Positions 31,056 through 49,961 are shown, counted from the stretch's first letter. The stretch is DNA of 64,000 nt from Pseudomonadota bacterium (GCA_043825735.1 JBDRRP010000125.1:1-64000); one strand, 5' to 3'. Made by a program: numbers and translations. Notes: generated from the sequence alone by a model not told the origin.

Positions 31056-32306
31056 TTAGAGGGTTTCGATGACACAGGCCATGGAAACGCCGCCGCCACC
31101 GCAGAGCGTGGCCATGCCCAGGGATTTGCCCTGTTTTCGCAGGGCGTGGAGCAGCGTGACGATGACACGGGCGCCGGTGGCCCCCACCGGGTGGCCCAGC
31201 CCGATTCCCGAACCATTGACGTTGGTTTTTTCCCGGTCCAGCCCAAGCTCCCGCTCGCATCCGATGTACTGGGCAGCAAACGCTTCGTTGACTTCCACAA
31301 GATCAAAATCGGAAATGGCAAACCCGCTGGTTTTCATCAGATGATTGACCGCTGGTACTGGCGACAATCCCATGATGGATGGATGGCAGGCGCCGCGACC
31401 GACGGCCCGGATGCGTGCCAGCGGTGTAACCCCAAGACGCTTGGCCGCCTCGGCGGACATGATTACCAGCGCCGCGGAGCCGTCATTGATGCCACTGGAG
31501 TTGCCGGCGGTCACCGTGCCGGTTTTAGGGATGAAGGCCGGGGGTAGCTTTTCGAGATCGGCCATCGTCATGCCGGGTCGAAAATGCTCGTCTTTGTCGA
31601 AGATGATCGGCGGCTTGCGCCGTTGAGGCACTTCAACAGGCACGATTTCTTCCTTGAAATCGCCTTCGTTGGTGGCGCGCTCAGTGTTGTTGTGGCTCCG
31701 GAGCGCCACGATGTCCATCTCCTCGCGGGTGATGCCCAGGTGCTGGGCCACGAATTCCGCGGTGTGTCCCATGATGTAGGGTTTGCCGATGAACTGGCTC
31801 AGCGGCGCCTTTTCGGAGTCCACCGGCCCGTCTTCGGGGTGGGGGATAATGTGGGAGCCGCAGTGCAGCGCACGGATCAGCGCGTCCACGAACTGCTGGT
31901 CCTGGAGACGGCAGCCCCACCGCGCGGCCGGTACCTGGTAAGCCACCCCGCTCATATGTTCTACGCCGCCGGCCAGGATCACTTCTGCCATGCCGGCCTG
32001 GATCATGGCCATGCCGGAGATGACGGCTTCCATACCGGAAATGCAGACGCGGTTAATGGTGACGGCGGTCACGGTGTCCGGGATGCCGGCCAAAAGGGCC
32101 CCGACCCGGGTGACATTGAGGGCGTCTGCCGGTTCGATGCAGCATCCGTATCGGATATCGTCGATCACTGCCGGATCGATGCCGGCCCGGGTGACGGCTT
32201 CTTTCATGGTAATACTGGCCAGAGTGGCCGCGTGAGAATCTTTGAGGCTGCCGCCGAATGCGCCGATGGCGGTGCGGCAGGCGGCGGCGATAACGACTTC
32301 TTTCAT
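31056..32306 (-). CDS. Canonical thiolase (acetyl-CoA C-acyltransferase)
   Basis: NRVCISG catalytic Cys, NEAF, GHPVGATG and CGGGG motifs. Confidence 0.93.
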   Translation of the reverse strand: MKEVVIAAACRTAIGAFGGSLKDSHAATLASITMKEAVTRAGIDPAVIDDIRYGCCIEPADALNVTRVGALLAGIPDTVTAVTINRVCISGMEAVISGMAMIQAGMAEVILAGGVEHMSGVAYQVPAARWGCRLQDQQFVDALIRALHCGSHIIPHPEDGPVDSEKAPLSQFIGKPYIMGHTAEFVAQHLGITREEMDIVALRSHNNTERATNEGDFKEEIVPVEVPQRRKPPIIFDKDEHFRPGMTMADLEKLPPAFIPKTGTVTAGNSSGINDGSAALVIMSAEAAKRLGVTPLARIRAVGRGACHPSIMGLSPVPAVNHLMKTSGFAISDFDLVEVNEAFAAQYIGCERELGLDREKTNVNGSGIGLGHPVGATGARVIVTLLHALRKQGKSLGMATLCGGGGVSMACVIETL

Positions 32307-34478: not shown

Positions 34479-35213
34479 TCAGCGTTTTCTGAGAAATTCT
34501 CGTTGGACGCGCAGGATGAAGGCAGTGATGATGCGCTGGTCGGCGGGGGTCAATTCCAAAAATTCAAGCGCGTAGCGGTGGCGGTATTGCGCGGTGTCTT
34601 GCTCCACGCGACGGACAACGGCTTTTTTGATCGATGCTTTCGTGGCCTCGGCCTCGGGACTGCCGGGGCAGGCGATGACGAGGTTGGCCAGCTGGGCACC
34701 AATTTTGAAAATGGGCTCTGAAGTCTGCTCGTTTCGACGCATGCGGCTGACGATGCCGAGGCCGCCGCTCTGGCTGATATTAATGAGGTCCATGGCCCGG
34801 GCTTCGCCGTTGATGGTCAACGCGAGCAGTGTCCCGGGCGGCGTGTCCACCCTGAAGTGCCGTCGCCGCTGGATTCGGGAGATCGCTTCCGGGACCGGCA
34901 CCCAAATGCCATCGGCCTCGATCCGTCCGCCGCTGGTATTGAAATTGTACTCGAGTTTGTCCTGGCCCGTGAACGTGAACTGGAGCCGCCAGCGGGGCGC
35001 TTTGGCCACGGCCGACTGGAATCCGCGCGGCGGATCCAGGACGAGAAAGGTGCCGCCCGGGTCCGTGCGGATATCGGTGATCATGGTGAGCCGTTCGTAG
35101 CCTTCAACGCCGCGGAGCCTCAAAGTGACAAGGGTGTTGGTGGTCTTCAGTTCTTCCAGCAGTTGGTTGATACGGTCGCCTTTCAGCTGACTACGATCGT
35201 CCATGGTCACCAT
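34479..35213 (-). CDS. PilZ-domain (YcgR/flagellar brake-like) c-di-GMP effector
   Basis: QRRRHFR and NISQSG PilZ motifs; start 35213 or 35204. Confidence 0.82.
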   Translation of the reverse strand: MVTMDDRSQLKGDRINQLLEELKTTNTLVTLRLRGVEGYERLTMITDIRTDPGGTFLVLDPPRGFQSAVAKAPRWRLQFTFTGQDKLEYNFNTSGGRIEADGIWVPVPEAISRIQRRRHFRVDTPPGTLLALTINGEARAMDLINISQSGGLGIVSRMRRNEQTSEPIFKIGAQLANLVIACPGSPEAEATKASIKKAVVRRVEQDTAQYRHRYALEFLELTPADQRIITAFILRVQREFLRKR

Positions 35214-35301
35214 CGATCCAGTGGGGAAGCCTGCGGTTTTTCGTGCCGCCGCAGTGGGGTGCGCGAGAAGTGTCCAAGAGTCTATTCTGGTTTTGAAAAA
35301 C

Positions 35302-35328
35302 ATATCGCACAGTACCAAAAAACCTTTA
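35302..35328 (-). promoter_or_regulatory. Possible sigma28-type promoter of the PilZ gene
   Basis: Minus strand TAAA-N15-TGCGATAT (CGATA core correctly placed). Confidence 0.5.
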
Positions 35329-35431
35329 ATCCGAGGGAGATCTGCACCGTGCGTATGCGCTTTCGATCCGTATTCATTACATATTCCGATACATCCTTCA
35401 AGAACGAGATTGTATAAAGCAATTCGATGTT

Positions 35432-35535
35432 TGAATCTGATTCGAATTTATAATGTTGTTCAAGAATATCTTGACAACCCTGGGCCGAAAGGGCTATGAA
35501 AAATTCAAAACATGAATCTGATTCGAATTTATAAT
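35432..35535 (+). promoter_or_regulatory. Promoter flanked by two identical 23-bp operator-like sites
   Basis: TGAATCTGATTCGAATTTATAAT at 35432-35454 and 35513-35535; TTGACA at 35471 with TATGAA 18 bp later. Confidence 0.75.
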
Positions 35536-35629: not shown

Positions 35630-36772
35630 ATGGATTTTGCGTTCACCAGAGAACAGTTAATGTTCAAGCAGGAAGTGATCCGGTTTGCCAAGAAGGAAAT
35701 CGTGCCGCGCGTGCAGGAGCACGACCTGAAAGAGGCCTTTGACTTCGAATCGTTTAGAAAGCTCGGTGAGTTTGGAATTTTAGGGCTCCACTTCCCCGAA
35801 GCCTATGGCGGAGAGGGGGCCGATGTGGTCACCACCGTTCTGGCTGGTGAAGCACTCGGGGAGGCCGGTGTCGACGGTGGGCTGACCCTCGCCTATGGCG
35901 CCCATACCTTTTTATGCGCCGACACCATTTTCAGCCATGGCAGTGAGGCTCAGCGCCAGCATTTCATCCCCAAACTGGCCCGGGGTGAGTGGATCGGCTG
36001 CATGGGGCTGTCAGAGCCCGATGCCGGCTCGGATGTGGCCTCCATGAGCACGACGGCCGTGCGAGACGGAGACGACTACGTCCTCAACGGTACCAAGATG
36101 TGGATCACCAACGGCCCCATTGCCGATGTGGCCGTGGTCTATGCCAAGACCCAGCCGGATCTTCAGCACGCCGGTATTTCCGCTTTCATTGTGGAAAAGG
36201 GCACTGCGGGCTTCTCGGCGGGGCGACCGCTGATCAAGATGGGCGTGCGCACTTCCCAGACCTCCGAGCTGGTATTCAACGAATGTCGGATTCCGGCTGA
36301 AAACCTTCTGGGCAAAGAAGGCGAAGGGTTTCTTTACGCCATGCAAACCGTCGAGTGGGACCGCAGCGCGCTGCTGGCCCCCTTTGTGGGATCCACGACC
36401 TATCTGCTGAAAAAATGCGCAGACTACGCCAAGGGGCGGGTGCAGTTCGGCCGCCCCATCGGGTCTTTCCAGGCCATCAAGAACAAACTGGCGGACATGC
36501 GCATTTTCGGTGAGGCCTCCCGGTCGCTGGTCTACCGCATCGCCTGGTGCAAGGATCAGGGGCGCCCGCTCAATCATCTGGAGGCGGCCGTGGCCAAGCT
36601 TTTCATCGGCGACTGGAGCCTGTCGGTCACCAATGATGCCGTCACCCTCCACGGCGGCTATGGCTATACCCACGAATTTGACGTGGAACGCATTTTCAGG
36701 GATACGCGGCTGGCGCCCATCGGCGGCGGCACCTCGGAAATTCAGAAGATGATCATTTCCAAACTTATGTGA
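35630..36772 (+). CDS. Acyl-CoA dehydrogenase (probable catalytic subunit)
   Basis: LSEPDAGSD, NGTKMWITN, RVQFGRPI..FQ, HGGYGY, IGGGTSEI; GGAGG RBS. Confidence 0.92.
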   Translation: MDFAFTREQLMFKQEVIRFAKKEIVPRVQEHDLKEAFDFESFRKLGEFGILGLHFPEAYGGEGADVVTTVLAGEALGEAGVDGGLTLAYGAHTFLCADTIFSHGSEAQRQHFIPKLARGEWIGCMGLSEPDAGSDVASMSTTAVRDGDDYVLNGTKMWITNGPIADVAVVYAKTQPDLQHAGISAFIVEKGTAGFSAGRPLIKMGVRTSQTSELVFNECRIPAENLLGKEGEGFLYAMQTVEWDRSALLAPFVGSTTYLLKKCADYAKGRVQFGRPIGSFQAIKNKLADMRIFGEASRSLVYRIAWCKDQGRPLNHLEAAVAKLFIGDWSLSVTNDAVTLHGGYGYTHEFDVERIFRDTRLAPIGGGTSEIQKMIISKLM

Positions 36773-36809
36773 ACGGTGCGCCGAGCGGCGCCTGCGTTGC
36801 GGAGGACCC

Positions 36810-37946
36810 ATGAACTACGACTTCAATCCGGTTGAGCAAACGTTCATTGACGGTTTTATCGATACCCTGGCGACGGTATTGGACGGGCGCAACACTGATG
36901 ACCCTGCCGCTCGAAGCGATCGCGGCGGTCTGCTGGCGGCCCTTTCAGCACTCGCCGGCGGCGGGTTTCTGCGACAGGGGTTGTCCCTTGCCGGTGACCC
37001 TGCGGTCTCCAAGGCGGCACAGCTGGCGACGAGTGCGGCGCTGGCGGCCCGGTCCCCGTCGCTGGCACTGGCCGCGGAAGTCAGTGTGCGGTTGTTTGGC
37101 CGCATCGTTGATACCTGGGGAACGCCGGCGCAAAAGAATGCCCTGCTGAAGCCGGTGACCGACGGCGTCGCCGTCGGGGCAGTGGCGTTGTCCGAGGCGG
37201 CCATGAACGTGGAAAACGACCCGCTGGAAACGATCGGTGTTCCCGACGGCGACACCATGGTGGTCAACGGGGCCAAATCCTATGTGGTCAATGCCGCCCT
37301 TGCCGACTGGGTGGCCGTTGCGGGGCGACTGGAAGACAAAGGGGCCATTTTCATTATTTCGGCAGGCACTGACGGGCTGCGGGTGGATCCCTCCAGTCAG
37401 GTCCTTGGGCTGGACGGTGTAGCGTTTTCCTCGCTGCGTTTTGAAAACTGCCGGATTGCCGCGGACCGGGTCATCGGCCCCATGGACATGGGTCAGATGC
37501 TTACCCGCATCCGATCCTGGGAGAATATGAACCTTTGCGCCCTCAGTCTGGGGATGATGCAGGCTGCTTTCGAGACGGCCCGGGATCACGCCAAGACCCA
37601 TCGTTCCGGCGGCAAACCGGTAATCGCCTATCAGGCCGTGGGTTTCAAGCTCAGCGAAATGCTCACTTTGTGCCAGACCGCCCAGTGGCTGACGTACCGG
37701 GCCGGGTGGGCCTCGGAGAGCGGCCAAAGCGATGCCGAGACCCTGGTGCGCTGCGCCAAGGTGTTTTGCTCAGAAGCGGTGGCGCAGGTGTCGGCAAAGG
37801 CCCTTCAGGTGCTGGCCGGGGCCGGCATCACCACAGCCAATCCGGCCGATCGGGGCTACCGCGCGGCGGCCTATACCCAGATCGCGGGGCTGTCCACCGA
37901 AATCGCCCGGGTGCGCATCGGCGACGAGGCCATGGGCTGGAAGTAG
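36810..37946 (+). CDS. Divergent acyl-CoA dehydrogenase-fold protein (probable partner subunit)
   Basis: Retains NGAKSYVVN and GKPVIAYQ.V.FKL; EPxxGSD, GGYGY and GGTSE motifs are degenerate. Confidence 0.8.
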   Translation: MNYDFNPVEQTFIDGFIDTLATVLDGRNTDDPAARSDRGGLLAALSALAGGGFLRQGLSLAGDPAVSKAAQLATSAALAARSPSLALAAEVSVRLFGRIVDTWGTPAQKNALLKPVTDGVAVGAVALSEAAMNVENDPLETIGVPDGDTMVVNGAKSYVVNAALADWVAVAGRLEDKGAIFIISAGTDGLRVDPSSQVLGLDGVAFSSLRFENCRIAADRVIGPMDMGQMLTRIRSWENMNLCALSLGMMQAAFETARDHAKTHRSGGKPVIAYQAVGFKLSEMLTLCQTAQWLTYRAGWASESGQSDAETLVRCAKVFCSEAVAQVSAKALQVLAGAGITTANPADRGYRAAAYTQIAGLSTEIARVRIGDEAMGWK

Positions 37947-37957
37947 GCGGTGGAAGA

Positions 37958-38003
37958 CAGAGGTCAGAGGTCAGAGGTCGGAAGTCGGCGGTCAGAGGTC
38001 GGA
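37958..38003. repeat. Short heptamer tandem array (CAGAGGT)n
   Basis: CAGAGGT x3 plus degenerate units. Confidence 0.7.
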
Positions 38004-38024
38004 GATCTACGCTGACATCAAAGA

Positions 38025-38206
38025 TTGATGCATTTATAAAAAGTCGGTTTTTTCTTTTTCCGTCATCCCGGACGAGTGAAGCGAGATCCGGGATCCAGTG
38101 ATTTCAAGCACTTCTGGACCCCGGCCTTCCACCTTCGCTATAAAAATAGCTACGGCGGACAGGTCGCCGGGGTGACGGGCTTTGAAACTTTTTACGGCTT
38201 CATCAA
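38025..38206. repeat. Family D shell carrying a GTCATCCCGG-type palindrome
   Basis: TTGATG..TAAAAAGTC / ACTTTTTACGGCTTCATCAA around CCGTCATCCCGG..GATCCAG..CTGGACCCCGG..CCGGGGTGACGG. Confidence 0.7.
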
Positions 38207-38236
38207 GGTTGCTTTGAATAACAGAGGTGCCGAGTT

Positions 38237-38917
38237 ATGCCCAAAGCCAGTGCGGGGAAAACACAGTCCGGAAGCGACGGCCCACAGAACAAAAGCGCCC
38301 TGCGACGCCAACGGGAGCGCGAGCAGCGCTACCAGACGATCCTCAAGGCCGCTGAATGCTGCTTTGCGCGAGACGGTTACAACAAGGCGAGCGTGGAGCA
38401 GATTGCCGACGAAGCGGAAGTGTCGGTGGGCACCGTCTATTTTTATTTCAAAAACAAGGAAGATCTGCTGATCCATCTCTTGAACGACATCGGGTTTCAA
38501 CTGCGGGATCTGCTGGGGCGTGAGTTCCGCAAGGCTGATGGCTCCGTCGAGGGGATGCGACGGGCCGGCCAGGTGTTTTTTGATGAGTTCTGTCCCCACT
38601 ACCCGGAGCGACTTCTCATTTTCTTTCGCGATGCGGTGGGGCAGAGCGCCGAAGTGGAGGCGCATCGGAAGAAAATTTTCAATCGACTCATCCTCGATGT
38701 GCGCGAGGCGCTGGAGCGATTGGCCGTCCAGCAGGAAGAAGTCTTTCAAAGCCCGCTGGCTGCCGAGGTGATGGCAGTGAGCATCATGGGCATGTACGAG
38801 CGAATTGCCTATCACTACCTGATATGGCAGGAGGACCGGTCGAAGGATCTGGTCACTATCGGCAGCGATGCCGTTGATTTCATCGTGGGGGGGATTCCGA
38901 ATCTGTTTAAGAAGTAA
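38237..38917 (+). CDS. TetR/AcrR family transcriptional regulator
   Basis: ILKAA..F..GY...SVEQIA..AEVSVGTVYFYFKNKEDL HTH. Confidence 0.92.
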   Translation: MPKASAGKTQSGSDGPQNKSALRRQREREQRYQTILKAAECCFARDGYNKASVEQIADEAEVSVGTVYFYFKNKEDLLIHLLNDIGFQLRDLLGREFRKADGSVEGMRRAGQVFFDEFCPHYPERLLIFFRDAVGQSAEVEAHRKKIFNRLILDVREALERLAVQQEEVFQSPLAAEVMAVSIMGMYERIAYHYLIWQEDRSKDLVTIGSDAVDFIVGGIPNLFKK

Positions 38918-38926
38918 AGAAAAAAG

Positions 38927-39123
38927 AAAGGGTTCGAGGGGCCGAGGGTCCAAGGGTTCAAGGGGAACAACGAACCCGATGACCCGACGCACCGGCAGTG
39001 GCAGCAGTGCTGATGCAGCAAGGGAAAACCGAAAGTCTTGGGAGAGCCTTGCCGAAGCCGTCATGGATGTTTTTTTTGGGGTCTCACTTGAACCCTCGAA
39101 CCCTCGGCCCCTTGAACCCTTTT
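38927..39123. repeat. Family C inverted octamer-array element, copy 2
   Basis: AGGGTTCG-AGGGGCCG-AGGGTCCA-AGGGTTCA ... TGAACCCT-CGAACCCT-CGGCCCCT-TGAACCCT. Confidence 0.8.
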
Positions 39124-39188
39124 TTTCAAGCGGAAACCGGTGACACGATTTACTAACAGTCACCCCATCGGGAAGAAAGCATCACCCA

Positions 39189-39743
39189 TTGCTCCTCAAA
39201 GGCGCCCTACATGTACACACCACCTGTTCCGACGGCACCCTTTCCATTGCCGAGGTGGTCGCCGTCTACGAGCGTCTGGGATTCGACTTCATCGCCCTTA
39301 CCGATCACGACTATCTGCTCAGGGGGGAGTGCTATGCACAGGTGGCGCGCTTGCGCACCCCGTTGATCATCTTCACCGGTGTGGAAATGAGCGTTTTTGA
39401 AAAGGGCTACGTCCACGTGAACCGCATCGACGGCAACCGTGACACACTGCATATCTTCAACCACCCCGCCGAACTCGATCTACCTCTGGACAAAGTGATC
39501 GGGCGCATCGGCGAGGTGGCCCGGCAGGTATCGCTGGACGCAATTGAAATTACCACCAAGGGGTTCCGTACCCCGGAGTACGACATCCCCGAGATTCCCT
39601 ACCCGAAAGTGGCTACCGATGACGCCCACACGGTGCAGATGTGCGGCCGCGCATGGATTGAAATGGACTGCGGCCGGGACAAGGACGCCATCATCCGGGC
39701 CGTCCGAAACGGGGATTTCTGGAACTGTTACGCAACCGGCTGA
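39189..39743 (+). CDS. PHP-domain metal-dependent phosphoesterase
   Basis: LHVHT..SDG, LTDHD, GVE, NHP, DDAH motifs; TTG start. Confidence 0.85.
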   Translation: MLLKGALHVHTTCSDGTLSIAEVVAVYERLGFDFIALTDHDYLLRGECYAQVARLRTPLIIFTGVEMSVFEKGYVHVNRIDGNRDTLHIFNHPAELDLPLDKVIGRIGEVARQVSLDAIEITTKGFRTPEYDIPEIPYPKVATDDAHTVQMCGRAWIEMDCGRDKDAIIRAVRNGDFWNCYATG

Positions 39744-39807
39744 CCCGTCAGGCGGTCCCGGAAAAATCGATGATAAACCGACGGCAATCGTTACGAAGGA
39801 GAGGATT

Positions 39808-40956
39808 ATGACCAGACGGGTGGGGATTTGCGCGGTGGCGCAGACACCGTACAAAGGCAATTTCTGGGAAGAACGGTTTCAGGGGATGGGGCTCATGGTC
39901 CTGGAATCGCTTCTGGAGCAGACCGGCGTGGATTTCTCCGAGAACGGCGGCATCGACATGAGTATCAGCGTCTCCAACGACGTCTTCGATGCCCGCACCA
40001 TCTCAGACAATGCCATGACCGACGTCCTGGGGGCGCACTACCGGTGTGAGGAGAAGGTCGACCAGGATGGTTCTCAGGCCGTTTATTACGCGCTGGCCGC
40101 CATTCAGTCCGGGCACTGTGACAAGGTATTGATTCTGGGCCACTGCAAGGAATCCCAGTGCAAGAGCAGAAACATGGTCTCCCATCTGACCTTTGACCCG
40201 TTTTACACGCGGCCCGTGGGGCTCGACTACCTATCCGCCGCGGGTATGCAGGCGCGGGCCTACGGGGCGCGTGCCGGCATCACCGATGTCCAACTGGCAC
40301 GGATCGTAGCGCGCTGCCGGGCGGCTGCGGCAAAAAATCCGCTGCTGCCCGATGCCGTGGCGGTAACCGAAGCAGAGGTGCTGGCCTCGCCAATGCTGGC
40401 CGATCCCATCCGTGAGCTGCACGCCTACCCGGTCTCCGACGGCGCCATCGGCATGATCCTGGCCGCCGAGGATGTGGCCCGGCGGATCAGCAAGCGCCCT
40501 GTGTGGATCACCGGCGTTGGCAATGCCATGGACCATTTCTTCCTGGGAGACCGGGATCCGGGGGCGGCCGAGGCCCTGAAAGCCGCAGCGAAACGGGCCT
40601 ACCGGCGTGCCGGCATCACCGATCCGGGGGCGGCATTCGATGTGGTGGAGGTATGTGATCAGTACGCCTATCAGCAGCCCATGTGGATGGAAGGCCTGGG
40701 GCTGGTGCCTGCGGGGGGCGGTGGCCGGTGGCTGGATGCCGGCGGTCCGGATGCCGCCCGGGTTAACCTCTCGGGCGGGATGCTGGCCGGCAACCCGATG
40801 ATCCTGGGCGGCCTCACGCGTGTGGCCGATGTCGTTCGCCAGTTGAGCGGCATAGCCGGCGATGGCCAGGTGCCCGATGCCCGTACCGGACTGGCCCACG
40901 GTGTCACCGGACCGGCCGGTCAGTTTCATACGGTCATCACCTTGTCCCGGGACTGA
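39808..40956 (+). CDS. Thiolase-fold protein lacking the catalytic Cys, Ltp4-like
   Basis: SDGA and VNLSGG motifs; EKVDQDG in place of the Cys loop, reminiscent of Ltp4; AAGGAG RBS. Confidence 0.8.
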   Translation: MTRRVGICAVAQTPYKGNFWEERFQGMGLMVLESLLEQTGVDFSENGGIDMSISVSNDVFDARTISDNAMTDVLGAHYRCEEKVDQDGSQAVYYALAAIQSGHCDKVLILGHCKESQCKSRNMVSHLTFDPFYTRPVGLDYLSAAGMQARAYGARAGITDVQLARIVARCRAAAAKNPLLPDAVAVTEAEVLASPMLADPIRELHAYPVSDGAIGMILAAEDVARRISKRPVWITGVGNAMDHFFLGDRDPGAAEALKAAAKRAYRRAGITDPGAAFDVVEVCDQYAYQQPMWMEGLGLVPAGGGGRWLDAGGPDAARVNLSGGMLAGNPMILGGLTRVADVVRQLSGIAGDGQVPDARTGLAHGVTGPAGQFHTVITLSRD

Positions 40957-41009
40957 AGGCGCCGAGGCGCAAGCGCGGTGAGATCACCATTTCGATGCGG
41001 AGGCAGAAC

Positions 41010-42203
41010 ATGAAAAAGAATAGAAACGTCGGCATCGTCGGCGTCGGACAATCCCATTATTCCAGTCACCGGGAAGAGGTCAATCAACCTGAGATGATCC
41101 ACGAGGCGGTGGCCGCGGCCCTTGCCCAGGCAGGGCTCACCATCGCCGACGTGGACTGCATCGTTCACGGCAATATGGAGCTTTTCGAGATGATCCACCA
41201 GCCGGACATGTGGCACACTTTGGGCACCGGCGCTGCCGGCAAGGAGTGCCTGCGGGTGACCACCGGGGGCACGACCGGTGCCACCCTGGTCTGCGCCGCC
41301 GATGCCCTGGTGGCTTCAGGGCTCCACGACGTGGTGCTGGCCGTCGGATTTGAGAAACTGCAGGAGGGCCACACCACCGGCGGCATCACCAATATGGCCG
41401 ACCCGCTGTGGGGGCGGCAGCTGCAGACCGGAGCGCTTACCGGCATGACCGCCGACCAGGTCATCAACGAGTTCGGCGCCGAGCGGGCCAAGGCGGCGTC
41501 GATGGCCTACCGCATACAGATGGACAAGCACGCCATGAAAAATGACAAGGCCCACCGGCGGCTGGGGCTCGAATTCGATCAGGCGGCCGAACTGGCTGAA
41601 AATTCTCCGCAGTTGGTGGGCGAGCTCAGAATGATTCACATGTGCTCCCAGAGCGACGGCGCCTGCGCCATGATCTTTGCCTCGGAAGAAAAGGCAAAAT
41701 CGCTGTGCCCCCAGCCGGCATGGATCAAGGATCACATCACCGTTCACCGAGAGGAGATGTTCTGCCTATTCGGCGATGCGCCGGTGCTCTCCACCCATCG
41801 CTACGCCGCCGAGCGGCTTTTCAAGCGAAACGGCATCACCGATCCCCGCCGGGAGATCGATGTCTTTGAAATGTACGATCCCTCGAGCTGGTGGGGTGTC
41901 GACTGGCTGCGCGAATTTCTGCTGCTGGAAGGCGACGCGCACATCAAGATGGTGGAAAACGGGGAGATCGCCATCGACGGCGCCTTTCCGGTGAACCCGT
42001 CGGGCGGCGTCATCGCATCCAACCCCATCGGGGCGACGGCAATGGTGCGGGTGGCTGAGGCGGCCATGCAGATCATGGGCACGGCCGGCGGTCACCAGGT
42101 CCCCAAAACCGTGAACCAGGCGATGGCCAGCGGCTTTGGCGGCACCATGTGGACGGTACTCTTTTTACTGACCCGCGACGTGCCGTGGCCTGCGGCTGTT
42201 TGA
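41010..42203 (+). CDS. Thiolase-fold protein lacking the catalytic Cys, Ltp3-like
   Basis: RVTTGGTTG, GFEK, SDGACA, EMYDP and VNPSGGVIASNPIGA, reminiscent of Ltp3. Confidence 0.82.
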   Translation: MKKNRNVGIVGVGQSHYSSHREEVNQPEMIHEAVAAALAQAGLTIADVDCIVHGNMELFEMIHQPDMWHTLGTGAAGKECLRVTTGGTTGATLVCAADALVASGLHDVVLAVGFEKLQEGHTTGGITNMADPLWGRQLQTGALTGMTADQVINEFGAERAKAASMAYRIQMDKHAMKNDKAHRRLGLEFDQAAELAENSPQLVGELRMIHMCSQSDGACAMIFASEEKAKSLCPQPAWIKDHITVHREEMFCLFGDAPVLSTHRYAAERLFKRNGITDPRREIDVFEMYDPSSWWGVDWLREFLLLEGDAHIKMVENGEIAIDGAFPVNPSGGVIASNPIGATAMVRVAEAAMQIMGTAGGHQVPKTVNQAMASGFGGTMWTVLFLLTRDVPWPAAV

Positions 42204-42265
42204 GACGATCAGACGATTACAGCGCCAAATCATCGGTTGAACGATTCTTGCGAGAGGGAGGGATC

Positions 42266-45200
42266 ATGAACCTCGGAACATACCTGGACAACAGCGTGGC
42301 AGCGTACCCTGATGCCCCGTATCTGCAGTTCTACGAAGAGACCGTCACGTTCACCGCGTTTGCACGGCAGGTGAACATCCTGGCCAATGCGCTCAGGCGG
42401 CAGGGTTTTAAAAAGGGCGATTTCATTCACGTGCTGGTGCAAAACAGCCCCCAGACGCTCGCCAGCTATTTCGCCATCCAGAAGATCGGCGCCGTGGCCG
42501 GCCCGGTGAACGGCTGGTGGAAGGCGCCGGAAGTGGCATACCTGCTGAACGACTCCAAGGGGCGCGGGCTTATCATCGAAGACCAGTACCTGCCCATCCT
42601 GGAAGAGATCCGGGGACAGTGCCCGCATCTGGAAAAGGTGATTCTGGTGGGAAAGGGCTCCGCGCCGGACACCATCCCCATGCAAGCCCTGGTGGCCGAG
42701 GCAGACGAGACCCCGGTGGTCTGCGATGCCGAGACGGATGACATCGCCTATATTTTCTACACCTCCGGCACCACTGGAAACCCCAAGGGGGTGCTGCTCT
42801 CTCACAAGAATGTTTTGGCCGATGTGGCCGGGGTGACCCAGGCGCTCAGCTTGAAAGAGAATATGACCGCCTTGATTTTTCTGCCGCTCTTTCACGTCAA
42901 CGCCATGCTCTCGTGTACGTTCGCTCTGGGCATCGGACTCCAGATCGTGCTGCGGCGGCAGTTTTCCGCCAGTGAGTTCTGGCCGCTGGTGGACCAACAC
43001 AAGATCAACTTCTGGTCGGCGGTGCCGGCGGTCTACCAGATCCTGCTCACCGACCCCACGCGGCAAAAATACGATCTGTCCTCGCTGCAGTTCGGCATCT
43101 GCGGTGCGGCGCCGCTCACCGAAGAGACCATGAGAAATTTCCAGGATACCTTCGGCATTCCCATCGTTGAAGGATACGGTCTTACCGAGGCCACCTGCGT
43201 GAGCACGCTGAACCCTAGAGACGGGGTCCGCAAGATCGGCTCCATCGGGCTGCCCCTGCCGGGGCAGGCGGTGAAAATGCTGCGTGAAGACGGCAGTGCC
43301 TGCGACCGGGGCGAGCCCGGCGAGATCTGCATCGGGGGCGATGTGGTGATGAAGGGCTACTTCAACCGGCCCGAGGACACCGAGGAGACCATCGTCGACG
43401 GCTACCTGCATACCGGAGACGTGGGGATCATGGACGACGACGGCTATATCTTCATCGTCGATCGCATCAAAGACATGATCATCCGCGGCGGGGAGAACAT
43501 CTACCCCAAGGAGATCGACAACCTTTTGGCCACCCATCCCAAGATTCAGGAAGCGGCCACGGTGGGCATTCCCGACAAGACCATGGGCGAGGCGGTGAAG
43601 GTCTATGTCGTTGCCCTGGACGACAGTCTTACCGAAGAAGAAGTGATCGATTACTGCAAAGAGCAGCTGGCAAAATTCAAGGTGCCGCAGACCGTGGAAA
43701 TTCTGGATGAAGACTTTCCCCGGAGCCCCATCGGCAAGGTGCTCAAAAAGACCCTGCGCCAGTGGGCTCAGGACGGACCGCGGGCAAAGAAAAAGGGGCC
43801 GGGGGTCACTGTGGCCGACATCTTCGGCACCATGGAAGCGCGGGTGCGGCCCGAAGGGGTGGCCGGCATCACGGCCAACTACGGCTACATCGTCACCGGC
43901 AGCGGCGGCGGCGAGTGGACCGTGTGCGTGGCCGACGGCAAGGTCGCGGTCAAGGACGGGCTCCATGATCCGCAGGTGACCACCACGGTGTCGGCCAAGG
44001 ACTGGATCGCCATCACGCTGAAAAAGCTCGACGGTATGACGGCGTTTTCCTCGGGCCGGCTCAAAGTGGAAGGCAACATGGGTCTGCTGGTCAAGGCCGC
44101 CGAGTTCTTCACCCAATACAAACCGCCGGTAGCGGCGCCGGAAGTGACCGTCGCCGACATCTTCGGCACCATGACGGCGCGGGTTCGGCCCGAAGGGGTG
44201 GCCGGCATCACGGCCAACTACGGCTATATCGTTACCGGCAGCGGCGGGGGCGAGTGGACCGTGTCTGTGGCCGATGGCAAAGTCCAAGTGAAGGAAGGCC
44301 TTCACGATCCGCAGGTAACCACGACGGTGTCGGCCAAGGACTGGATCGCCATCACGCTCAAAAAACTCGACGGTATGACGGCATTTTCCTCCGGGCGGCT
44401 CAAGGTGGAAGGAGACATGGGCCTTCTGGTCAAGGCGGCCGGGTTCTTCACGCCCTACAAACCGCCGACAGCAGCGCCTGAAGTGACCGTGGCCGATATA
44501 TTCGGCACCATGGCGGCGCGGGTCCGGCCGGAAGGGGTGGCCGGCATCACGGCCAACTACGGCTACGTCATCACCGGAACCGGCGGCGGCGAGTACACCG
44601 TGTGCGTGGCCGACGGGAAAGTGGCCGTGAAAGAAGGGCGCCACGATCCGAAGGTCACCACCACGGTATCGGCCAAGGACTGGATCGCCATCACACTGGG
44701 CAAGCTCGACGGCATGACGGCGTTTTCTTCGGGCCGGCTCAAGGTGGAAGGCGACATGGGGCTGCTCACCAAGGCAACCCAGTTTTTCAAAAAATATACG
44801 CCGCCTCTGGCGGGCGGCGAGGCGGAAGCCGAACGCGAAGAGCTGATCCGGCTCAACCAGGTGCTCTCCATTCCTCACCGGTTTTCAACCGGCCCGGTGA
44901 TGGGCAAGTTCCTGCGCGCCCTGAAGGACAAGCGGATTCTGGCCAACAAGTGCGCGTCTTGCGGCCGCATGCAGCTGCCGCCGCGGGAGATCTGTGCAGC
45001 GTGTCGGGTGCGCGTCGATCAGTGGGAAGAGGTGGGGCCGGAGGGCATCATCGCCACACCGGATGTGACTTACTATGCCAGCCCGGATCCCTTGACGGGC
45101 GAGAGCCGGGAGACACCGTATATCTCAGCCCATTTTCTCCTGGACGGCTGCCAGGGGCACGAAACCCTCTGGCACGAACTCAAGGCGGACACACCGCCGG

Positions 45201-45295
45201 AGAAGGTGAAACGCGGGGTGCGGGTGAGACCGGTGTGGAATGACGTCCGAAAGGGCGCGGTGACGGACATCGTCTATTTCGAGGTTATCGACTGA
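42266..45295 (+). CDS. Acyl-CoA ligase fused to three SCP2 domains and a C-terminal DUF35 (Zn-ribbon/OB-fold) domain
   Basis: YTSGTTGNPKG, EGYGLTE, TGD, RGGENIYP, GKVLK; three 113-aa repeats ending AFSSGRLKVEG.M; CASC..PPREICAAC. Confidence 0.9.
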   Translation: MNLGTYLDNSVAAYPDAPYLQFYEETVTFTAFARQVNILANALRRQGFKKGDFIHVLVQNSPQTLASYFAIQKIGAVAGPVNGWWKAPEVAYLLNDSKGRGLIIEDQYLPILEEIRGQCPHLEKVILVGKGSAPDTIPMQALVAEADETPVVCDAETDDIAYIFYTSGTTGNPKGVLLSHKNVLADVAGVTQALSLKENMTALIFLPLFHVNAMLSCTFALGIGLQIVLRRQFSASEFWPLVDQHKINFWSAVPAVYQILLTDPTRQKYDLSSLQFGICGAAPLTEETMRNFQDTFGIPIVEGYGLTEATCVSTLNPRDGVRKIGSIGLPLPGQAVKMLREDGSACDRGEPGEICIGGDVVMKGYFNRPEDTEETIVDGYLHTGDVGIMDDDGYIFIVDRIKDMIIRGGENIYPKEIDNLLATHPKIQEAATVGIPDKTMGEAVKVYVVALDDSLTEEEVIDYCKEQLAKFKVPQTVEILDEDFPRSPIGKVLKKTLRQWAQDGPRAKKKGPGVTVADIFGTMEARVRPEGVAGITANYGYIVTGSGGGEWTVCVADGKVAVKDGLHDPQVTTTVSAKDWIAITLKKLDGMTAFSSGRLKVEGNMGLLVKAAEFFTQYKPPVAAPEVTVADIFGTMTARVRPEGVAGITANYGYIVTGSGGGEWTVSVADGKVQVKEGLHDPQVTTTVSAKDWIAITLKKLDGMTAFSSGRLKVEGDMGLLVKAAGFFTPYKPPTAAPEVTVADIFGTMAARVRPEGVAGITANYGYVITGTGGGEYTVCVADGKVAVKEGRHDPKVTTTVSAKDWIAITLGKLDGMTAFSSGRLKVEGDMGLLTKATQFFKKYTPPLAGGEAEAEREELIRLNQVLSIPHRFSTGPVMGKFLRALKDKRILANKCASCGRMQLPPREICAACRVRVDQWEEVGPEGIIATPDVTYYASPDPLTGESRETPYISAHFLLDGCQGHETLWHELKADTPPEKVKRGVRVRPVWNDVRKGAVTDIVYFEVID
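43805..44821 (+). repeat. Three tandem 339-bp intragenic repeats encoding SCP2 domains
   Basis: Units start at 43805, 44144 and 44483; near-identical peptides with synonymous differences. Confidence 0.93.
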
Positions 45296-45307
45296 GGGGG
45301 GATACTT

Positions 45308-46201
45308 ATGGAGACCAACTACCAGGACAGTTTCGTCATCGACGGCAAACTCGCGCTTCCTTACCAATATTTTGCCGGCGCCATCGGCAGCCGGTTCATC
45401 CGGGCACTGCGCGACGAAAAGAAGATCATGGGGGTGCGCTGCAACACCTGTGGCAAGGTGTTCGTGCCGCCCCGGCAGACCTGCGCCGTCTGTTTCGAGG
45501 ATCTTTCAAATAATTGGGTGGACGTAAAGCCCACCGGTACGGTCACCGGCTGGACTGTGGTGCGCCGCGCCGAACCCCATCACCCGGTGGCTACGCCGTT
45601 TATTCAGGCGCTCATCAAGCTCGACGGCGCCGACACGCCCATCGTGCATATCGTCACGGGCCTGGGCGCCAGCCAGATGGCCGAAGGGCTCCGGGTCAAG
45701 GCGGAATTCGCCAGAAAGCCGGTCAACACCATCATGGCCATTGCGTGCTTTCGGCCCGAGCGAAAGGGGTCTCTCGAGCTGGGCTACAGCTACGATGATC
45801 TGGAGATCGGCATGACGGCATCCTTCACCAAGACCATCTCCGAGTCGGATGTATACCTGTTTGCAGGGATATCCGGCGATTTCAACCCCATGCATCTCAA
45901 CGAAGAGTTCGCCAAGATGACGCCCTTTGGTACGCGGATCGCCCACGGCGCGCTGCCTCAGAGCCTCATCGCACCGGTGCTGGGAATGAAGCTGCCGGGA
46001 CTTGGGACCGTCGCGCTGGAGATCACCGCCCGGTTCCGCAAGCCCACCTATTTCGGCGACACTATTACGGCCACGGCCGAAGTGGTGGAAAAGATCGAGC
46101 GGCGGCGCTGGGTGCGCATGGCGCTCACCTGGACCAACCAGCGCGACGAGCGGGTGGCCGAGGGCTCGGCGCTGGTGATCCCGCCGGTGCCGCTGGGGTA
46201 A
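45308..46201 (+). CDS. DUF35 domain fused to MaoC/PhaJ-type (R)-enoyl-CoA hydratase
   Basis: CNTC..PPRQTCAVC and OB fold, then FAGISGDFNPMH..IAHG hydratase motif. Confidence 0.9.
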   Translation: METNYQDSFVIDGKLALPYQYFAGAIGSRFIRALRDEKKIMGVRCNTCGKVFVPPRQTCAVCFEDLSNNWVDVKPTGTVTGWTVVRRAEPHHPVATPFIQALIKLDGADTPIVHIVTGLGASQMAEGLRVKAEFARKPVNTIMAIACFRPERKGSLELGYSYDDLEIGMTASFTKTISESDVYLFAGISGDFNPMHLNEEFAKMTPFGTRIAHGALPQSLIAPVLGMKLPGLGTVALEITARFRKPTYFGDTITATAEVVEKIERRRWVRMALTWTNQRDERVAEGSALVIPPVPLG

Positions 46202-46250: not shown

Positions 46251-46381
46251 TTGATGGTCCGCAAAAAGTCGAAGACTCTCGCAAAGCCGCAAAGATCGCG
46301 AAGTTAGCAGATTGATTAAATAATTTATTCTTGGCGCACTTGGCGCCTTTGCGAGAGGATTGCTTTTTACGAGCTTGTCGA
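46251..46381. repeat. Family D element, copy 2
   Basis: Clear homology to 1387-1520; preceded by nonamer units (CACGAAGGA/CACGAAGAT) at ~46222-46247. Confidence 0.78.
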
Positions 46382-46733: not shown

Positions 46734-47894
46734 ATGACTTACACATATACCGAAAAGGCCGGTTGCCAGGAGTATTTCGGCAAGGCACACGATATGGTAA
46801 GAAAGTCGGTGCGGGATTTTGTCAAAAAAGAGATCCTGCCGTTTGTCGAGGAATGGGAGGAGGCCGGCGAGTTTCCCCGGGAGCTCTACCGCAAGGCCGG
46901 CAAGGTGGGTGTCCTGGGCATCGGGTATCCTGAAGCCGTGGGCGGCACCCCCGGCGATATCTTTTTCAAGCTGGCCGCCAGCGAAGAGCTCATGCGATCG
47001 ACCTCCGGGGGGCTGGTGGCCGGGCTGGGATCGCTCGATATCGCGATTCCGCCCATCATCCGTCACGGCACCGATGAGCAGAAAGCAAGGTTCGTTGCGC
47101 CGGTGCTGGCCGGCGAGCGGATCGCGGCGCTGGCCGTCACCGAGCCGGGCGGCGGATCGGATGTGGCCAATCTTACGACCACGGCCGAAAGAGACGGCGC
47201 GCACTACGTCGTCAACGGCAGCAAAACGTTCATTACCAGCGGGTGCCGGGCTGATCAGATTACCTGCGCCGTGCGCACGGGCGAGGCCGGCGCACACGGC
47301 ATCAGCTTTCTGGTGATCGAAGCGGGCACCCCGGGGTATGTGGTGGGAAACCGCCTGAAGAAGACCGGCTGGTGGGCCTCCGATACCGCAGAACTTTTTT
47401 TCGACAATTGCCGGGTGCCGGCTGAAAACCGCATCGGCGAGGAGAACCAGGGTTTTTATCTGATTATGGAAAATTTCCAGACCGAGCGGCTGGCTCTTTC
47501 GGTAATGGCAAACATGACGGCCCGCATGGCGCTGGAGGCGGCGCTCGCCTACGCCAGGGAGCGCGAGGCCTTCGGCAAGAAACTCTTCGGTCATCAGGTG
47601 ACGCGTCACAAGCTGGTGGACATGGCCACTCTGGTAGAGGCCTCCACCGAGTTTACCTACCGGGTGGCGGCCAGGATCGATGCGGGCGTCGACCAGATCA
47701 AGGAAGTTTCCATGGCGAAAAACTTCGCCACTCAGGTGAGCGACAAGGTCACCACCGATGCGGTCCAGATTTTCGGCGGCTACGGGTACATGCGGGGCTT
47801 TCTGGTTGAGCGGCTCTACCGGGACAACCGGATTCTGTCCATCGGCGGCGGCACCACCGAAATCATGAAGGAGATTATTTCCAGGTTCTTGTAA
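46734..47894 (+). CDS. Acyl-CoA dehydrogenase (LCAD/IVD-type Glu position)
   Basis: TEPGGGSD, NGSKTFITSG, FQTER, FGGYGY, IGGGTTEI. Confidence 0.92.
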   Translation: MTYTYTEKAGCQEYFGKAHDMVRKSVRDFVKKEILPFVEEWEEAGEFPRELYRKAGKVGVLGIGYPEAVGGTPGDIFFKLAASEELMRSTSGGLVAGLGSLDIAIPPIIRHGTDEQKARFVAPVLAGERIAALAVTEPGGGSDVANLTTTAERDGAHYVVNGSKTFITSGCRADQITCAVRTGEAGAHGISFLVIEAGTPGYVVGNRLKKTGWWASDTAELFFDNCRVPAENRIGEENQGFYLIMENFQTERLALSVMANMTARMALEAALAYAREREAFGKKLFGHQVTRHKLVDMATLVEASTEFTYRVAARIDAGVDQIKEVSMAKNFATQVSDKVTTDAVQIFGGYGYMRGFLVERLYRDNRILSIGGGTTEIMKEIISRFL

Positions 47895-47952: not shown

Positions 47953-48066
47953 AAGGGTTCAAGGATCCGAGGGGTCGAGGGTTCGAGTGAACCCCCAATA
48001 AAACCCTAGTTCGCTTAGCTGTTGCCCTTCACTTGACCCCTTGGACCCTCGACCCCTTGAACCCTT
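47953..48066. repeat. Family C inverted octamer-array element, copy 3
   Basis: AGGGTTCA-AGGATCCG-AGGGGTCG-AGGGTTCG-AGTGAA ... TTCACT-TGACCCCT-TGGACCCT-CGACCCCT-TGAACCCT. Confidence 0.82.
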
Positions 48067-48107: not shown

Positions 48108-49961
48108 ATGGCACAACTACTATCCGACCGGCGGGACATGGATTTTGCGCTTTTCGAGCAACTGGGTCTGGAAGACCTGCTCTCCCACGAGAAGTTCGCA
48201 GAGCTCAACAAAAAGACCGTGGGACTGATCCTGAACGAGGCCCGGAATCTGGCGGTCAACGAAATCCACCCCACCAACCCGGCCGGAGACCGCGAGGGCT
48301 GCGTCTTTGAAAACGGCACGGTCACCGTCCCCGAATCCTTTCATCGGGCCTTTGAGCTTTTTCGAGAAGGCGAGTGGATCGCCCTGTTTGACGACCCCGA
48401 GGTCGGGGGGCAGGGACTGCCGGTCATGGTCGCCTCGGCCGTGGGCGAATACTTCACGGCCGCCAACTGCGCCTTCGGCATGTACCCGGGGCTCTGCCAC
48501 GGTGCGGGAAAACTCATCGAAGTCTTCGGCACCGAAGAACAAAAGGCCCTCTTTCTGGGAAAGATGTACGCCGGCCAGTGGGGCGGCTCCATGCTGCTCA
48601 CCGAGCCCGAGGCCGGCAGTGATGTGGGGGCGTTGACCACCTCGGCAAAGAAGCTCGATGACGGTACCTATGCCATTTCCGGCAGCAAGATATTTATTAC
48701 CGGCGGTGAGCAGAACCTGACCGAGAACATCATCCATCCGGTGCTGGCCCGCATCGAGGGCGCACCGGAAGGCACCAAGGGGATCAGCCTGTTTATCGTT
48801 CCAAAGATCCGGGTCAACGCCGACGGCAGCCTGGGCGAATCCAACGATGTGGTGTGTACCGGTATCGAGGAAAAGATGGGCATCCACGGATCGGCCACCT
48901 GCAGCCTCACACTGGGCGGAAAGGGAAAGTGCCGGGGCGAACTCCTGGGTGAAGAGAACAAGGGCATGCGGGCCATGTTCCACATGATGAACGAAGCCCG
49001 GCTGGGGGTGGGTATCCAGGGATTCTCCATGGCATCGGCCGCGTTCATGTACGCCATGAACTATGCCCGGGAGCGGCGCCAGGGGCGGCATCTTTTAAAG
49101 ATGATGGCGCCCGGCGCGCCCGCGGTACCGATCATCCAGCATCCGGATGTGCGGCGCATGCTGATGTGGATGAAGGCGTATGTCGAGGGCATGCGCAGTT
49201 TCATTTACTACGTGGGACGCTGCTTCGACCGGCAGGCAGTCACCGACGATGCTGCCGCCAAGGATGCCTTCACCGGTCTCGTGGAGGTGCTCACCCCCAT
49301 CGTCAAGGCCTATTGCACGGACAAGGCCGTCGAGGTGTGCTCACAGGCGGTTCAGGTTTACGGCGGCTACGGCTACACCGGCGAATATCCGGTGGAGCAG
49401 TATCTGCGCGACTGCCGGATCACCCCGATCTACGAAGGCACCAACGGCATCCAGGCCATGGACCTTCTGGGGCGCAAAATGGGCATGAAAAAGGGCAAGT
49501 ATTTTCTGGATCTGCTCGGCGAGATGCAAAAAACCATTGCCGAGGCCAAGGCCATTCCGGCGCTGGAGGATCTGGCCCTGCGGGTGGAGGCTGCCGTCAA
49601 CCGCCTGGGTGAGACGGCCATGACCCTGGGCGGTACGACCATGTCTCCACGGGTACTATCGGCCTTTGCCTACGCCAAGCCGTTTCTCGATGCGATGGGG
49701 GACGTGATCCTGGCGTGGATGCATCTGTGGCGGGCCGTGGTGGCCGCGCCCAAACTGGAAAAACTCGTCGGCACTCTGGAGCCGGCCGCGCGCCGGGAAA
49801 AAGCCGGCGCCAACAAGAACGCGGCCTTTTACGAAGGGGTGCTCGCTACGGCGACCTTTTTTATCAAGACCGTTTTACCAGAGACCATGGGCCGCATGCA
49901 GGTGATCGCCGAGGCCGACGACTGCATCGTGGATATGCCGGAGACGGCATTCCCGTCCTGA
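48108..49961 (+). CDS. Long (~600 aa) acyl-CoA dehydrogenase, paralog of 32333-34189
   Basis: LTEPEAGSD, KMGIHGSAT, IYEGTNGIQAMDLLGRK. Confidence 0.93.
   Translation: MAQLLSDRRDMDFALFEQLGLEDLLSHEKFAELNKKTVGLILNEARNLAVNEIHPTNPAGDREGCVFENGTVTVPESFHRAFELFREGEWIALFDDPEVGGQGLPVMVASAVGEYFTAANCAFGMYPGLCHGAGKLIEVFGTEEQKALFLGKMYAGQWGGSMLLTEPEAGSDVGALTTSAKKLDDGTYAISGSKIFITGGEQNLTENIIHPVLARIEGAPEGTKGISLFIVPKIRVNADGSLGESNDVVCTGIEEKMGIHGSATCSLTLGGKGKCRGELLGEENKGMRAMFHMMNEARLGVGIQGFSMASAAFMYAMNYARERRQGRHLLKMMAPGAPAVPIIQHPDVRRMLMWMKAYVEGMRSFIYYVGRCFDRQAVTDDAAAKDAFTGLVEVLTPIVKAYCTDKAVEVCSQAVQVYGGYGYTGEYPVEQYLRDCRITPIYEGTNGIQAMDLLGRKMGMKKGKYFLDLLGEMQKTIAEAKAIPALEDLALRVEAAVNRLGETAMTLGGTTMSPRVLSAFAYAKPFLDAMGDVILAWMHLWRAVVAAPKLEKLVGTLEPAARREKAGANKNAAFYEGVLATATFFIKTVLPETMGRMQVIAEADDCIVDMPETAFPS

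Follow-up and report, generated by a model that had tools for sequence, protein, structure and literature searches.

The 64,000-nt stretch analysed here, which we call the window, comes from a Pseudomonadota bacterium (GCA_043825735.1 JBDRRP010000125.1:1-64000) and carries a gene cluster centred on two thiolase-fold proteins, Th1 and Th2, and on two DUF35 domains, one fused to a CoA ligase with SCP2 repeats (DUF35a) and the other to a MaoC hydratase (DUF35b). All coordinates are those of the window; the host genome is labelled G000, and other sampled genomes, fetched loci and contigs carry G, L and C numbers. G000 (6.8 Mb, completeness 100%) belongs to an anaerobic bacterium of the sulfate-reducer type, and the close homologues of Th2 are mostly named as Desulfobacterales. 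The open reading frames and domains listed in a first-pass annotation of this DNA were all recovered, every frame in its place on the plus strand, and the cluster comprises the following features.

35431-35445 and 35512-35526, no strand: probable TetR operator, a 15-bp palindrome present twice (direct repeat, upstream regions of orthologues, matrix scan)
35630..36772, plus strand: ACAD1, an acyl-CoA dehydrogenase (ACAD) like IVD and prolyl-ACP dehydrogenase, probable catalytic subunit of a heteromeric ACAD (Asp244)
36810..37946, plus strand: ACAD2, a degenerate ACAD, probable non-catalytic partner of ACAD1 (catalytic Glu absent)
38237..38917, plus strand: TetR-family regulator (domain match)
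39189..39743, plus strand: short PHP phosphoesterase (domain match; tightly linked to this subclade of modules)
39808..40956, plus strand: Th1, Ltp4-like thiolase-fold subunit, probably structural (nothing conserved at the YDxx/HDCF motif)
41010(40995)..42203, plus strand: Th2, Ltp3-like thiolase-fold subunit with the probable retro-aldolase active site (Tyr289, Gly87, Asn338)
42266..45295, plus strand: ligase fusion of an AMP-binding domain, three SCP2 repeats and DUF35a (domains)
amino acids 1-505 of that fusion, plus strand: acyl-CoA ligase part (best solved relative FadD13)
43805-44125, 44144-44464 and 44483-44803, plus strand: SCP2 repeats of the ligase fusion (85-93% identical)
44852-45292, plus strand: DUF35a of the ligase fusion (C4 zinc ribbon)
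45308..46201, plus strand: fusion of DUF35b with a PhaJ-type (R)-enoyl-CoA hydratase, MaoC (Asp191/His196)
46734..47894, plus strand: ACAD3, LCAD-type, conserved behind DUF35b-MaoC (Glu in helix G)
48108..49961, plus strand: ACAD4, a 617-aa long-chain FadE-like protein, variably linked (domain match, loci)

The arrangement recurs in other genomes and is therefore not a product of chance. Among 401 genomes of one sulfate-reducer order, the ten-gene order of the cluster is seen again in three, G006, G056 and G060, the last of which has a second module inserted; in G017 the ligase and MaoC fusions are both missing, and the single genome of the same genus lacks the module (0/1). A close Th2 occurs in 45 of the 401 genomes, with a ligase orthologue directly downstream in 40 and with two or three modules in 18, so that the search across genomes advised by the first-pass annotation revealed a conserved module. 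A second sample, overlapping with the first, consists of 78 GTDB loci, taken from the 80 top-ranking of at least 591 matches; in 73 of these loci Th1 immediately precedes Th2, and in 75 a DUF35 gene immediately follows it. Passenger genes, counted with truncated contigs scored as misses, vary with Th2 identity. At 75% identity or more (12 loci) there are eight ligase fusions, eight DUF35-MaoC fusions and one BKACE gene; at 64-74% (32 loci) there is no ligase fusion, and we find BKACE in 19 loci, PHP in 26 and, in 14, a fusion of BKACE with DUF35b; below 64% (34 loci, Dehalococcoidia and Asgard archaea included) SCP2, ligase, MaoC and BKACE fusion are all absent and BKACE occurs six times, archaeal loci among its carriers. 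PHP, whose relatives in the ESM Atlas are unnamed PHP clusters only, is found in 33 of the 44 loci at or above 64% and in one of the 34 below.

From this variation it follows that the core consists of Th1, Th2 and two distinct DUF35 domains. Ligase and MaoC vary with the lineage: sister modules either lack them or carry BKACE in their place. All 120 homologues of the ligase's C-terminal domain among the matches listed are ligase-(SCP2)1-3-DUF35 fusions, with one SCP2 copy in 54, two in 47 and three in 19, and the fusion is on record in cultured Desulfosarcina widdelii (DSCW_55610) and Desulfatirhabdium butyrativorans. Strict mutual exclusion of ligase and BKACE was considered and rejected, as six genomes carry both, G252 within one cluster. 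BKACE of the linked type (at least 69% identity; one 49% match, in G438, was set aside) is present in 7 of 18 multi-module and 0 of 27 single-module genomes, which as kin are not independent; the three BKACEs of G000 are 26-38% identical to that type, one being too short to compare. In related loci BKACE is accompanied by a pair of CoA-transferase genes, which we had considered as IpdAB and rejected as such, there being no match to that NCBIfam model and weak 3-oxoacid CoA-transferase matches only. The Asgard modules L096, L103, L105, L108 and L109 lie near BKACE, Fe-alcohol dehydrogenase, a phytoene-desaturase-like flavoprotein and a ligase (with AFOR and SCP2 also in L096 and L109, and both DUF35s fused in tandem in L103), a neighbourhood that suggests an alcohol-to-acid route for isoprenoid lipids.

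Phylogeny bears out a kinship with Ltp3 and Ltp4, a pair that, with an adjacent tandem-DUF35 protein, EchA19 and FadD19, is associated with the C24-branched sterol side chain in actinobacteria (Wilbrink 2012, as cited in the available text of PMC6273163 and PMC6678751). In a 51-row IQ-TREE analysis (a subset of 186 rows from Th2-seeded searches, composed without solved-structure sequences), Th1 and Th2 fall into a 35-row clade (100/99) with NCBIfam-validated actinobacterial Ltp3/Ltp4 and archaeal PRK06065/06066; the Ltp2-like, BbsB and SCP2/Ltp1 proteins, against which the first-pass annotation had wished the pair to be placed, lie outside. Th2 groups with Ltp3 (96/79), and Th1 with Ltp4 in FastTree (98) and in a quick tree (93). 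Among the NCBIfam models Th2 matches PRK08313 (Ltp3) best, and Th1 matches PRK08313, PRK06066 and PRK07937 (Ltp4) about equally, every one of these scores lying under its cut-off. Actinobacterial Ltp3/Ltp4 controls score above the curated cut-offs; the module appears to work like Ltp3/Ltp4 yet fails membership of the actinobacterial family.

The likeness extends to gene content: the cluster has the ltp4-ltp3 type of gene pair in that order, two DUF35 domains per pair, the same motif Tyr, and a ligase and hydratase nearby, just as actinobacterial loci from a plasmid collection hold a tandem-DUF35 gene, ltp4, ltp3, EchA19 and a ligase. However, identity to the actinobacterial pair is about 21% for Th1 and 34% for Th2, and the cluster forms a sister lineage rather than a nested one. 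Instead of forming a tandem, each DUF35 belongs to a separate fusion, one with ligase-(SCP2)n and the other with a PhaJ-type MaoC that is catalytic; PHP is added, the host is anaerobic and without KstD, and the ligase is not FadD19-like. Comparison of the actinobacterial tandem halves with types a and b gave no assignment. Two Streptomyces plasmids (L041, L045) carry a ligase-hydratase-DUF35-ltp4-ltp3 block near terpene (geosmin) synthase genes, and no steroid genes are annotated in the fetched stretches.

The active-site residues of thiolases have been lost from both proteins. Th2 has Gly87 in place of the nucleophile Cys and Asn338 in place of the His of the GHP motif, and Th1 likewise lacks both residues, which aligned BbsB- and SCP2-type rows keep. 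Tyr289 of Th2, invariant in 68/68 homologues, occupies the alignment position of the motif Tyr in Ltp2-like proteins and actinobacterial Ltp3, and this Tyr serves as catalytic base in Ltp2 and Sal according to the passages available of PMC12329534. The loss of thiolase chemistry claimed at the outset is supported; the description of the pair as lacking Cys is right for the nucleophile position only, Th2 having an invariant Cys212 elsewhere (68/68). The Th2 motif is Tyr-Asp-Pro, which is neither the YDHF with second Tyr of Ltp2 nor the YDCY of Sal, and Th1 has no residue conserved at the YDxx/HDCF motif. The Th2 model (predicted local distance difference test score, pLDDT, 89.9) adopts the fold of SCP2 thiolases; the closest solved relatives share only 17-26% identity with it, with SCP2, archaeal and Bbs thiolases ranked above Ltp2 and Sal by Foldseek. 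Source annotations call relatives of Th2 "acetyl-CoA C-acetyltransferase".

Docking of the ligase onto the thiolase folds through DUF35 was proposed in the first-pass annotation and is supported by modelling. The predicted Th1-Th2-DUF35a complex scored 0.87 against 0.42 for the best control, with at least 89% of contacts agreeing between runs and a partner pLDDT of at least 84. The mark we used is reached by 116/157 solved complexes and 2/215 mismatched pairs and is roughly applicable here; like complexes have already been solved, so that passing it shows likeness. In the model DUF35a contacts Th1 at its N-terminal helices, and Th2 at loops 119-147, 198-202 and 245-257 (aligned-chain numbering). 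The notion of one DUF35 per thiolase-fold subunit calls for revision, as the modelled DUF35a touches both chains. In related systems, DUF35 bridges two protomers in Ltp2 (PMC11321319) and shapes the cleft in Sal (PMC12329534). A Th1/Th2 heterodimer would have two unlike ends, and we infer that it therefore takes two types of DUF35. That Th1, Th2 and the DUF35 fusions form a complex is very likely. True channelling within it, which had also been proposed, is improbable, because the analogous Shy-Sal system releases 93% of the Shy product, as described in the portion of PMC12329534 at hand.

The hydratase departs from the ChsH2-like protein suggested initially. It has the domain order of Shy, reversed relative to ChsH2, and an intact Asp/His dyad (Asp191/His196), and no partner gene accompanies it. 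It aligns to 1iq6 and 5cpg with few gaps or none, and its model, a single hot-dog domain of canonical fold, lies at a root-mean-square deviation of 1.0 A over 129 residues from PhaJ (1iq6) and 3.9 A from Shy. Steroid hydratases, by the account given in the accessible part of PMC11321319, require a remodelled or partnered pocket; Shy MaoC is so remodelled, with a template-modelling score of 0.67 to the MaoC of the cluster.

Other DUF35 systems share parts of this plan. The Comamonas bile-acid enzymes Shy-Sal (PDB 9myr, 8vwr; accessible sections of PMC11321319 and PMC12329534) likewise have a DUF35-MaoC fusion, a single catalytic MaoC and a thiolase-fold aldolase with a Tyr base, onto which the fusion docks, but Sal is a homodimer with the Cys of YDCY as acid, and Shy-Sal, reported not to channel, has neither ligase nor SCP2. 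In ChsH1-ChsH2(DUF35)-Ltp2 (PDB 6ok1, 4w78) DUF35 bridges a thiolase-fold dimer and hydration is drawn forward when a tertiary alcohol is cleaved by the retro-aldol reaction, whereas ChsH2 is a non-catalytic MaoC-DUF35 and Ltp2, homodimeric and equipped with YDHF plus a second Tyr, belongs to a separate clade. DUF35 also scaffolds the multi-enzyme assemblies of BbsAB, archaeal thiolase/HMGS/DUF35 and Sulfolobus KT/DUF35/ACR/MaoC, all of which, unlike the cluster, contain thiolases.

The dehydrogenases and the promoter region complete the cluster. ACAD2 is degenerate, as the first-pass annotation had it, with no match to the Pfam N-terminal ACAD domain and no Glu at either catalytic position, and it follows ACAD1 in orthologous loci. 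Asp244 of ACAD1, kept in 9/9 orthologues of at least 69% identity, occupies the position of the helix-G catalytic Glu of IVD-type enzymes and prolyl-ACP dehydrogenase; the open-literature passages at hand describe no characterised natural ACAD with Asp there. The idea that ACAD1 might be a 1,4-dehydrogenase was set aside, since the catalytic Asp91 of Ch1DH lies in the N-terminal domain and the conserved Asp of ACAD1 is at the IVD position and not that of Ch1DH (PMC9293079). Before ACAD1 a 42-nt direct repeat, its copies 81 bp apart, holds the 15-bp palindrome twice, and similar palindromes precede several ACAD1 orthologues. A matrix trained on sites of other genomes put G000:C90:14288 at the top of its genome-wide list, followed by 35431, with 35512 in twelfth place, a ranking that is partly circular because the seed pattern was taken from this site. 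The palindromes are probably the operator of the cluster's TetR regulator. The top-ranked site lies between divergent ligase genes heading a second, distant module and an EchA19-like hydratase gene; this module (G000:C90:8196-17295, L037) reads DUF35b-Th1-Th2-DUF35a, with a Tyr-Gln-Pro motif, two ligases and 39% and 43% identity, and probably forms one regulon with the module of the window. Farther along C90 (about 45.5-51.7 kb; L179:7492-13733), a PRK06157 thiolase stands beside a 923-aa DUF35, SDR and SCP2 protein, a 705-aa MaoC-SDR-SCP2 protein like peroxisomal multifunctional enzyme 2, an ACAD, a CoA-transferase III and a TetR gene, which we read from their domains as a putative further DUF35-tethered lipid complex.

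Two genes are divergent from the cluster and were assigned by domain match; the same pair recurs in L023 and L046.

31056-32306, minus strand: divergent classical thiolase
32333-34189, minus strand: divergent ACAD, 618 aa

A PilZ-domain gene (34479-35318, minus strand), not found in L023 or L046, lies between this pair and the cluster. Long, REP/MITE-like inverted repeats between genes occupy 38923-39126, 46276-46357 and 47953-48066, and a genome scan found pieces of the same element at several places.

As the first-pass annotation held, the substrate cannot be read from the sequence; the evidence gathered nonetheless disfavours a steroid. With three candidates scored per genome, the KstD model has no match in G000 or in any of the 45 genomes with the module, and the MaoC is without steroid-adapted architecture. 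KstD matches eight of the 401 genomes (G036, G220, G271, G296, G458, G467, G476 and G482, with up to 667 bits at a cut-off of 788), which are possibly steroid-transforming sulfate reducers; G036 also carries a distant Ltp3/Ltp4-like module (L027). The ligase, which keeps its adenylation motifs, is not FadD19-like, PRK07798 being outside its 25 best models. A hydrophobic acid is indicated by the SCP2 repeats, the nearness of the ligase to FadD13 and the LCAD type of ACAD3. Plain fatty acids seem to be covered elsewhere in G000, by a cluster on C152 (ETF, FeS oxidoreductase, ligase, ACAD, TetR) that resembles the D. multivorans myristate locus as presented in the excerpt available of PMC5109826. 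A geranyl-CoA-carboxylase/Atu context was not upheld, G000 having one biotin carboxylase; a search for AtuA was blank, and its control gave no signal either. G000 has a Liu-like cluster on C155 (L180:4625-10764) of ACAD, hydratase, carboxyltransferase, HMG-CoA-lyase-like and TetR genes with no biotin carboxylase adjoining; G017 carries these genes as well, placed after its second aldolase module (L026). On C144 a glycyl-radical (PFL-like) gene (L185:2478-4889) is followed by a CoA-transferase pair, MmgE/PrpD, ACAD and AFOR.

We find it somewhat more probable than its competitors taken together that the module is an Ltp4/Ltp3-like retro-aldolase with DUF35-tethered enzymes that passes beta-branches. 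Th1 and Th2 would form a heterodimer with two non-equivalent ends, one clamped by DUF35a and the other by DUF35b, these domains serving as exchangeable docking tags: DUF35a would hold the SCP2 lipid carriers and the CoA ligase, and DUF35b the (R)-hydratase, whose unfavourable equilibrium the aldolase would pull. The enoyl-CoA may be supplied by ACAD1/2 or ACAD3. Retro-aldol cleavage of the 3-hydroxyacyl-CoA would take place on Th2, where Tyr289 would act as base, Th1 having a structural role; aldol-type cleavage by Th2 is likely. The role, presumably played without oxygen, would be to overcome a beta-branch that stands in the way of beta-oxidation; the acid would be hydrophobic and non-steroid, and probably acyclic, and we put the chances of a non-steroid branched acid as substrate at even. 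The released piece would be a free 3-oxo acid or a ketone, which sister modules may pass to BKACE and CoA-transferase. BKACE condenses a beta-keto acid with acetyl-CoA and releases acetoacetate (PMC4922564, in the section available), and the Ltp3/Ltp4 scheme outlined in the part of PMC6678751 consulted comprises carboxylation and hydration, the cut, and then a required thioesterification. In the window cluster the fused ligase may turn the 3-oxo acid back into a CoA ester, which the divergent thiolase may then thiolyse; this fits the absence of linked BKACE from single-module genomes. The activating ligase of the first-pass annotation may thus work downstream of the cut and not at entry, a possibility that we hold tentatively.

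Several points weigh against this explanation. No carboxylase gene lies in the cluster and G000 has a single biotin carboxylase, so that formation of a 3-oxo acid by way of carboxylation lacks support in this case; cleavage that skips carboxylation and yields a ketone is just as plausible. Pockets of the PhaJ type are suited to short chains, as far as the text at hand of PMC11321319 goes, at odds with the SCP2 repeats and long-chain ligase. The Th2-Ltp3 grouping is unstarred, the careful tree does not join Th1 and Ltp4 as one clade, and both proteins score below the NCBIfam cut-offs for PRK08313 and PRK07937 (Th2 277/514 bits, Th1 176/419 bits). No general acid equivalent to Tyr344 of Ltp2 or Cys304 of Sal is evident in the Th2 alignment. 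The aldolase role of Ltp3/Ltp4 rests on gene knock-outs in the account available from PMC6273163, and its extension to the Th1/Th2 clade is a prediction. The co-occurrence of ligase and BKACE noted above also tells against a simple exchange of one for the other.

A Sal-like bypass of thiolysis, in which a secondary 3-hydroxyacyl-CoA, its chain unbranched or 2-branched, would yield an aldehyde and an acyl-CoA, with aldehyde:ferredoxin oxidoreductase (AFOR) oxidising the aldehyde and the fused ligase re-activating the acid, is unlikely. It would suit the DUF35-MaoC order shared with Shy (PMC11321319, available part) and the PhaJ fold adapted to plain chains, as well as the AFOR genes beside related modules L027, L058, L067, L084, L096, L109 and L113 and the five AFOR-like genes of G000; yet the kinship is with Ltp3/Ltp4 and not with Sal or Ltp2, no AFOR lies in the window cluster, the BKACE linkage points to a 3-oxo acid, and G000 has a separate FadR/ETF/ligase/ACAD cluster and a FadB-like gene. 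Trimming of C24-branched sterol or hopanoid side chains without ring degradation, as by actinobacterial Ltp3/Ltp4, strikes us as quite improbable. The kinship itself, the SCP2 repeats, the heteromeric-type ACAD pair and the EchA19-like hydratases (292 and 301 bits against a cut-off of 400) that adjoin paralogous modules speak for it, but the KstD result, the MaoC architecture (judged by the same portion of PMC11321319) and the ligase type do not.

Operation in the anabolic direction, with aldol condensation of an acyl-CoA and a carbonyl compound followed by dehydration and reduction to branched or ether-lipid precursors, would have an analogy in archaeal DUF35-held synthetic complexes. We consider it very unlikely: in the archaeal complex a ketothiolase carries out a Claisen condensation, the surroundings of the present module (ligases, BKACE with CoA-transferase and the TetR operator) are of a catabolic kind, and the module is patchy, being absent from the same-genus genome. 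Least probable to us is a non-canonical, BbsAB-like thiolase that uses another cysteine such as Cys212, whose invariance, with the Foldseek ranking, would favour it; Cys212 is however common to Ltp2-like and SCP2-like proteins and off the thiolase catalytic position, both thiolase residues are replaced, the cluster has no 3-hydroxyacyl-CoA dehydrogenase, and a canonical thiolase adjoins.

The novelty suspected at the outset stands as far as the open literature goes, subscription papers being outside its scope: we found no paper on the cluster, on the ligase-SCP2-DUF35 fusion or on DUF35 with BKACE. The available passages of the D. multivorans proteome and naphthalene thn papers do not mention the cluster, and the DUF35 fusions listed in the part of PMC2954200 at hand (thiolase, SDR, SCP2 and hot-dog domains) do not include a ligase. 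DUF35 docking, aldolase-hydratase coupling and the Ltp3/Ltp4 pair are already known principles; the new elements are a non-steroid lineage in anaerobes, DUF35 domains that are split and whose passengers can be exchanged, a ligase tethered in this way, and PHP.

To our knowledge, the passage of beta-branches in lipids by strict anaerobes is poorly mapped. More speculatively, and with a chance that we rate as low but real, the retro-aldolase module may provide oxygen-independent branch removal in sulfate reducers for acyclic isoprenoid or methyl-branched acids. These acids would be derived from phytol, prenyl phosphates or archaeal lipids, with PHP freeing the alcohol and DUF35 acting as a plug-in tag; the ligase would perform the re-activation step for which anaerobes from spirochaetes to Asgard archaea would use BKACE. 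The presence of the ligase fusion in cultured Desulfosarcina widdelii and Desulfatirhabdium butyrativorans makes these ideas directly testable. The acetyltransferase labels on Th2 relatives would inflate thiolase counts in metabolic reconstructions, and a CoA-ester aldolase for non-steroid substrates would, if real, be a useful biocatalyst. The ligase on its DUF35 tag is a candidate for the re-activation step that is missing from the Ltp3/Ltp4 pathway.

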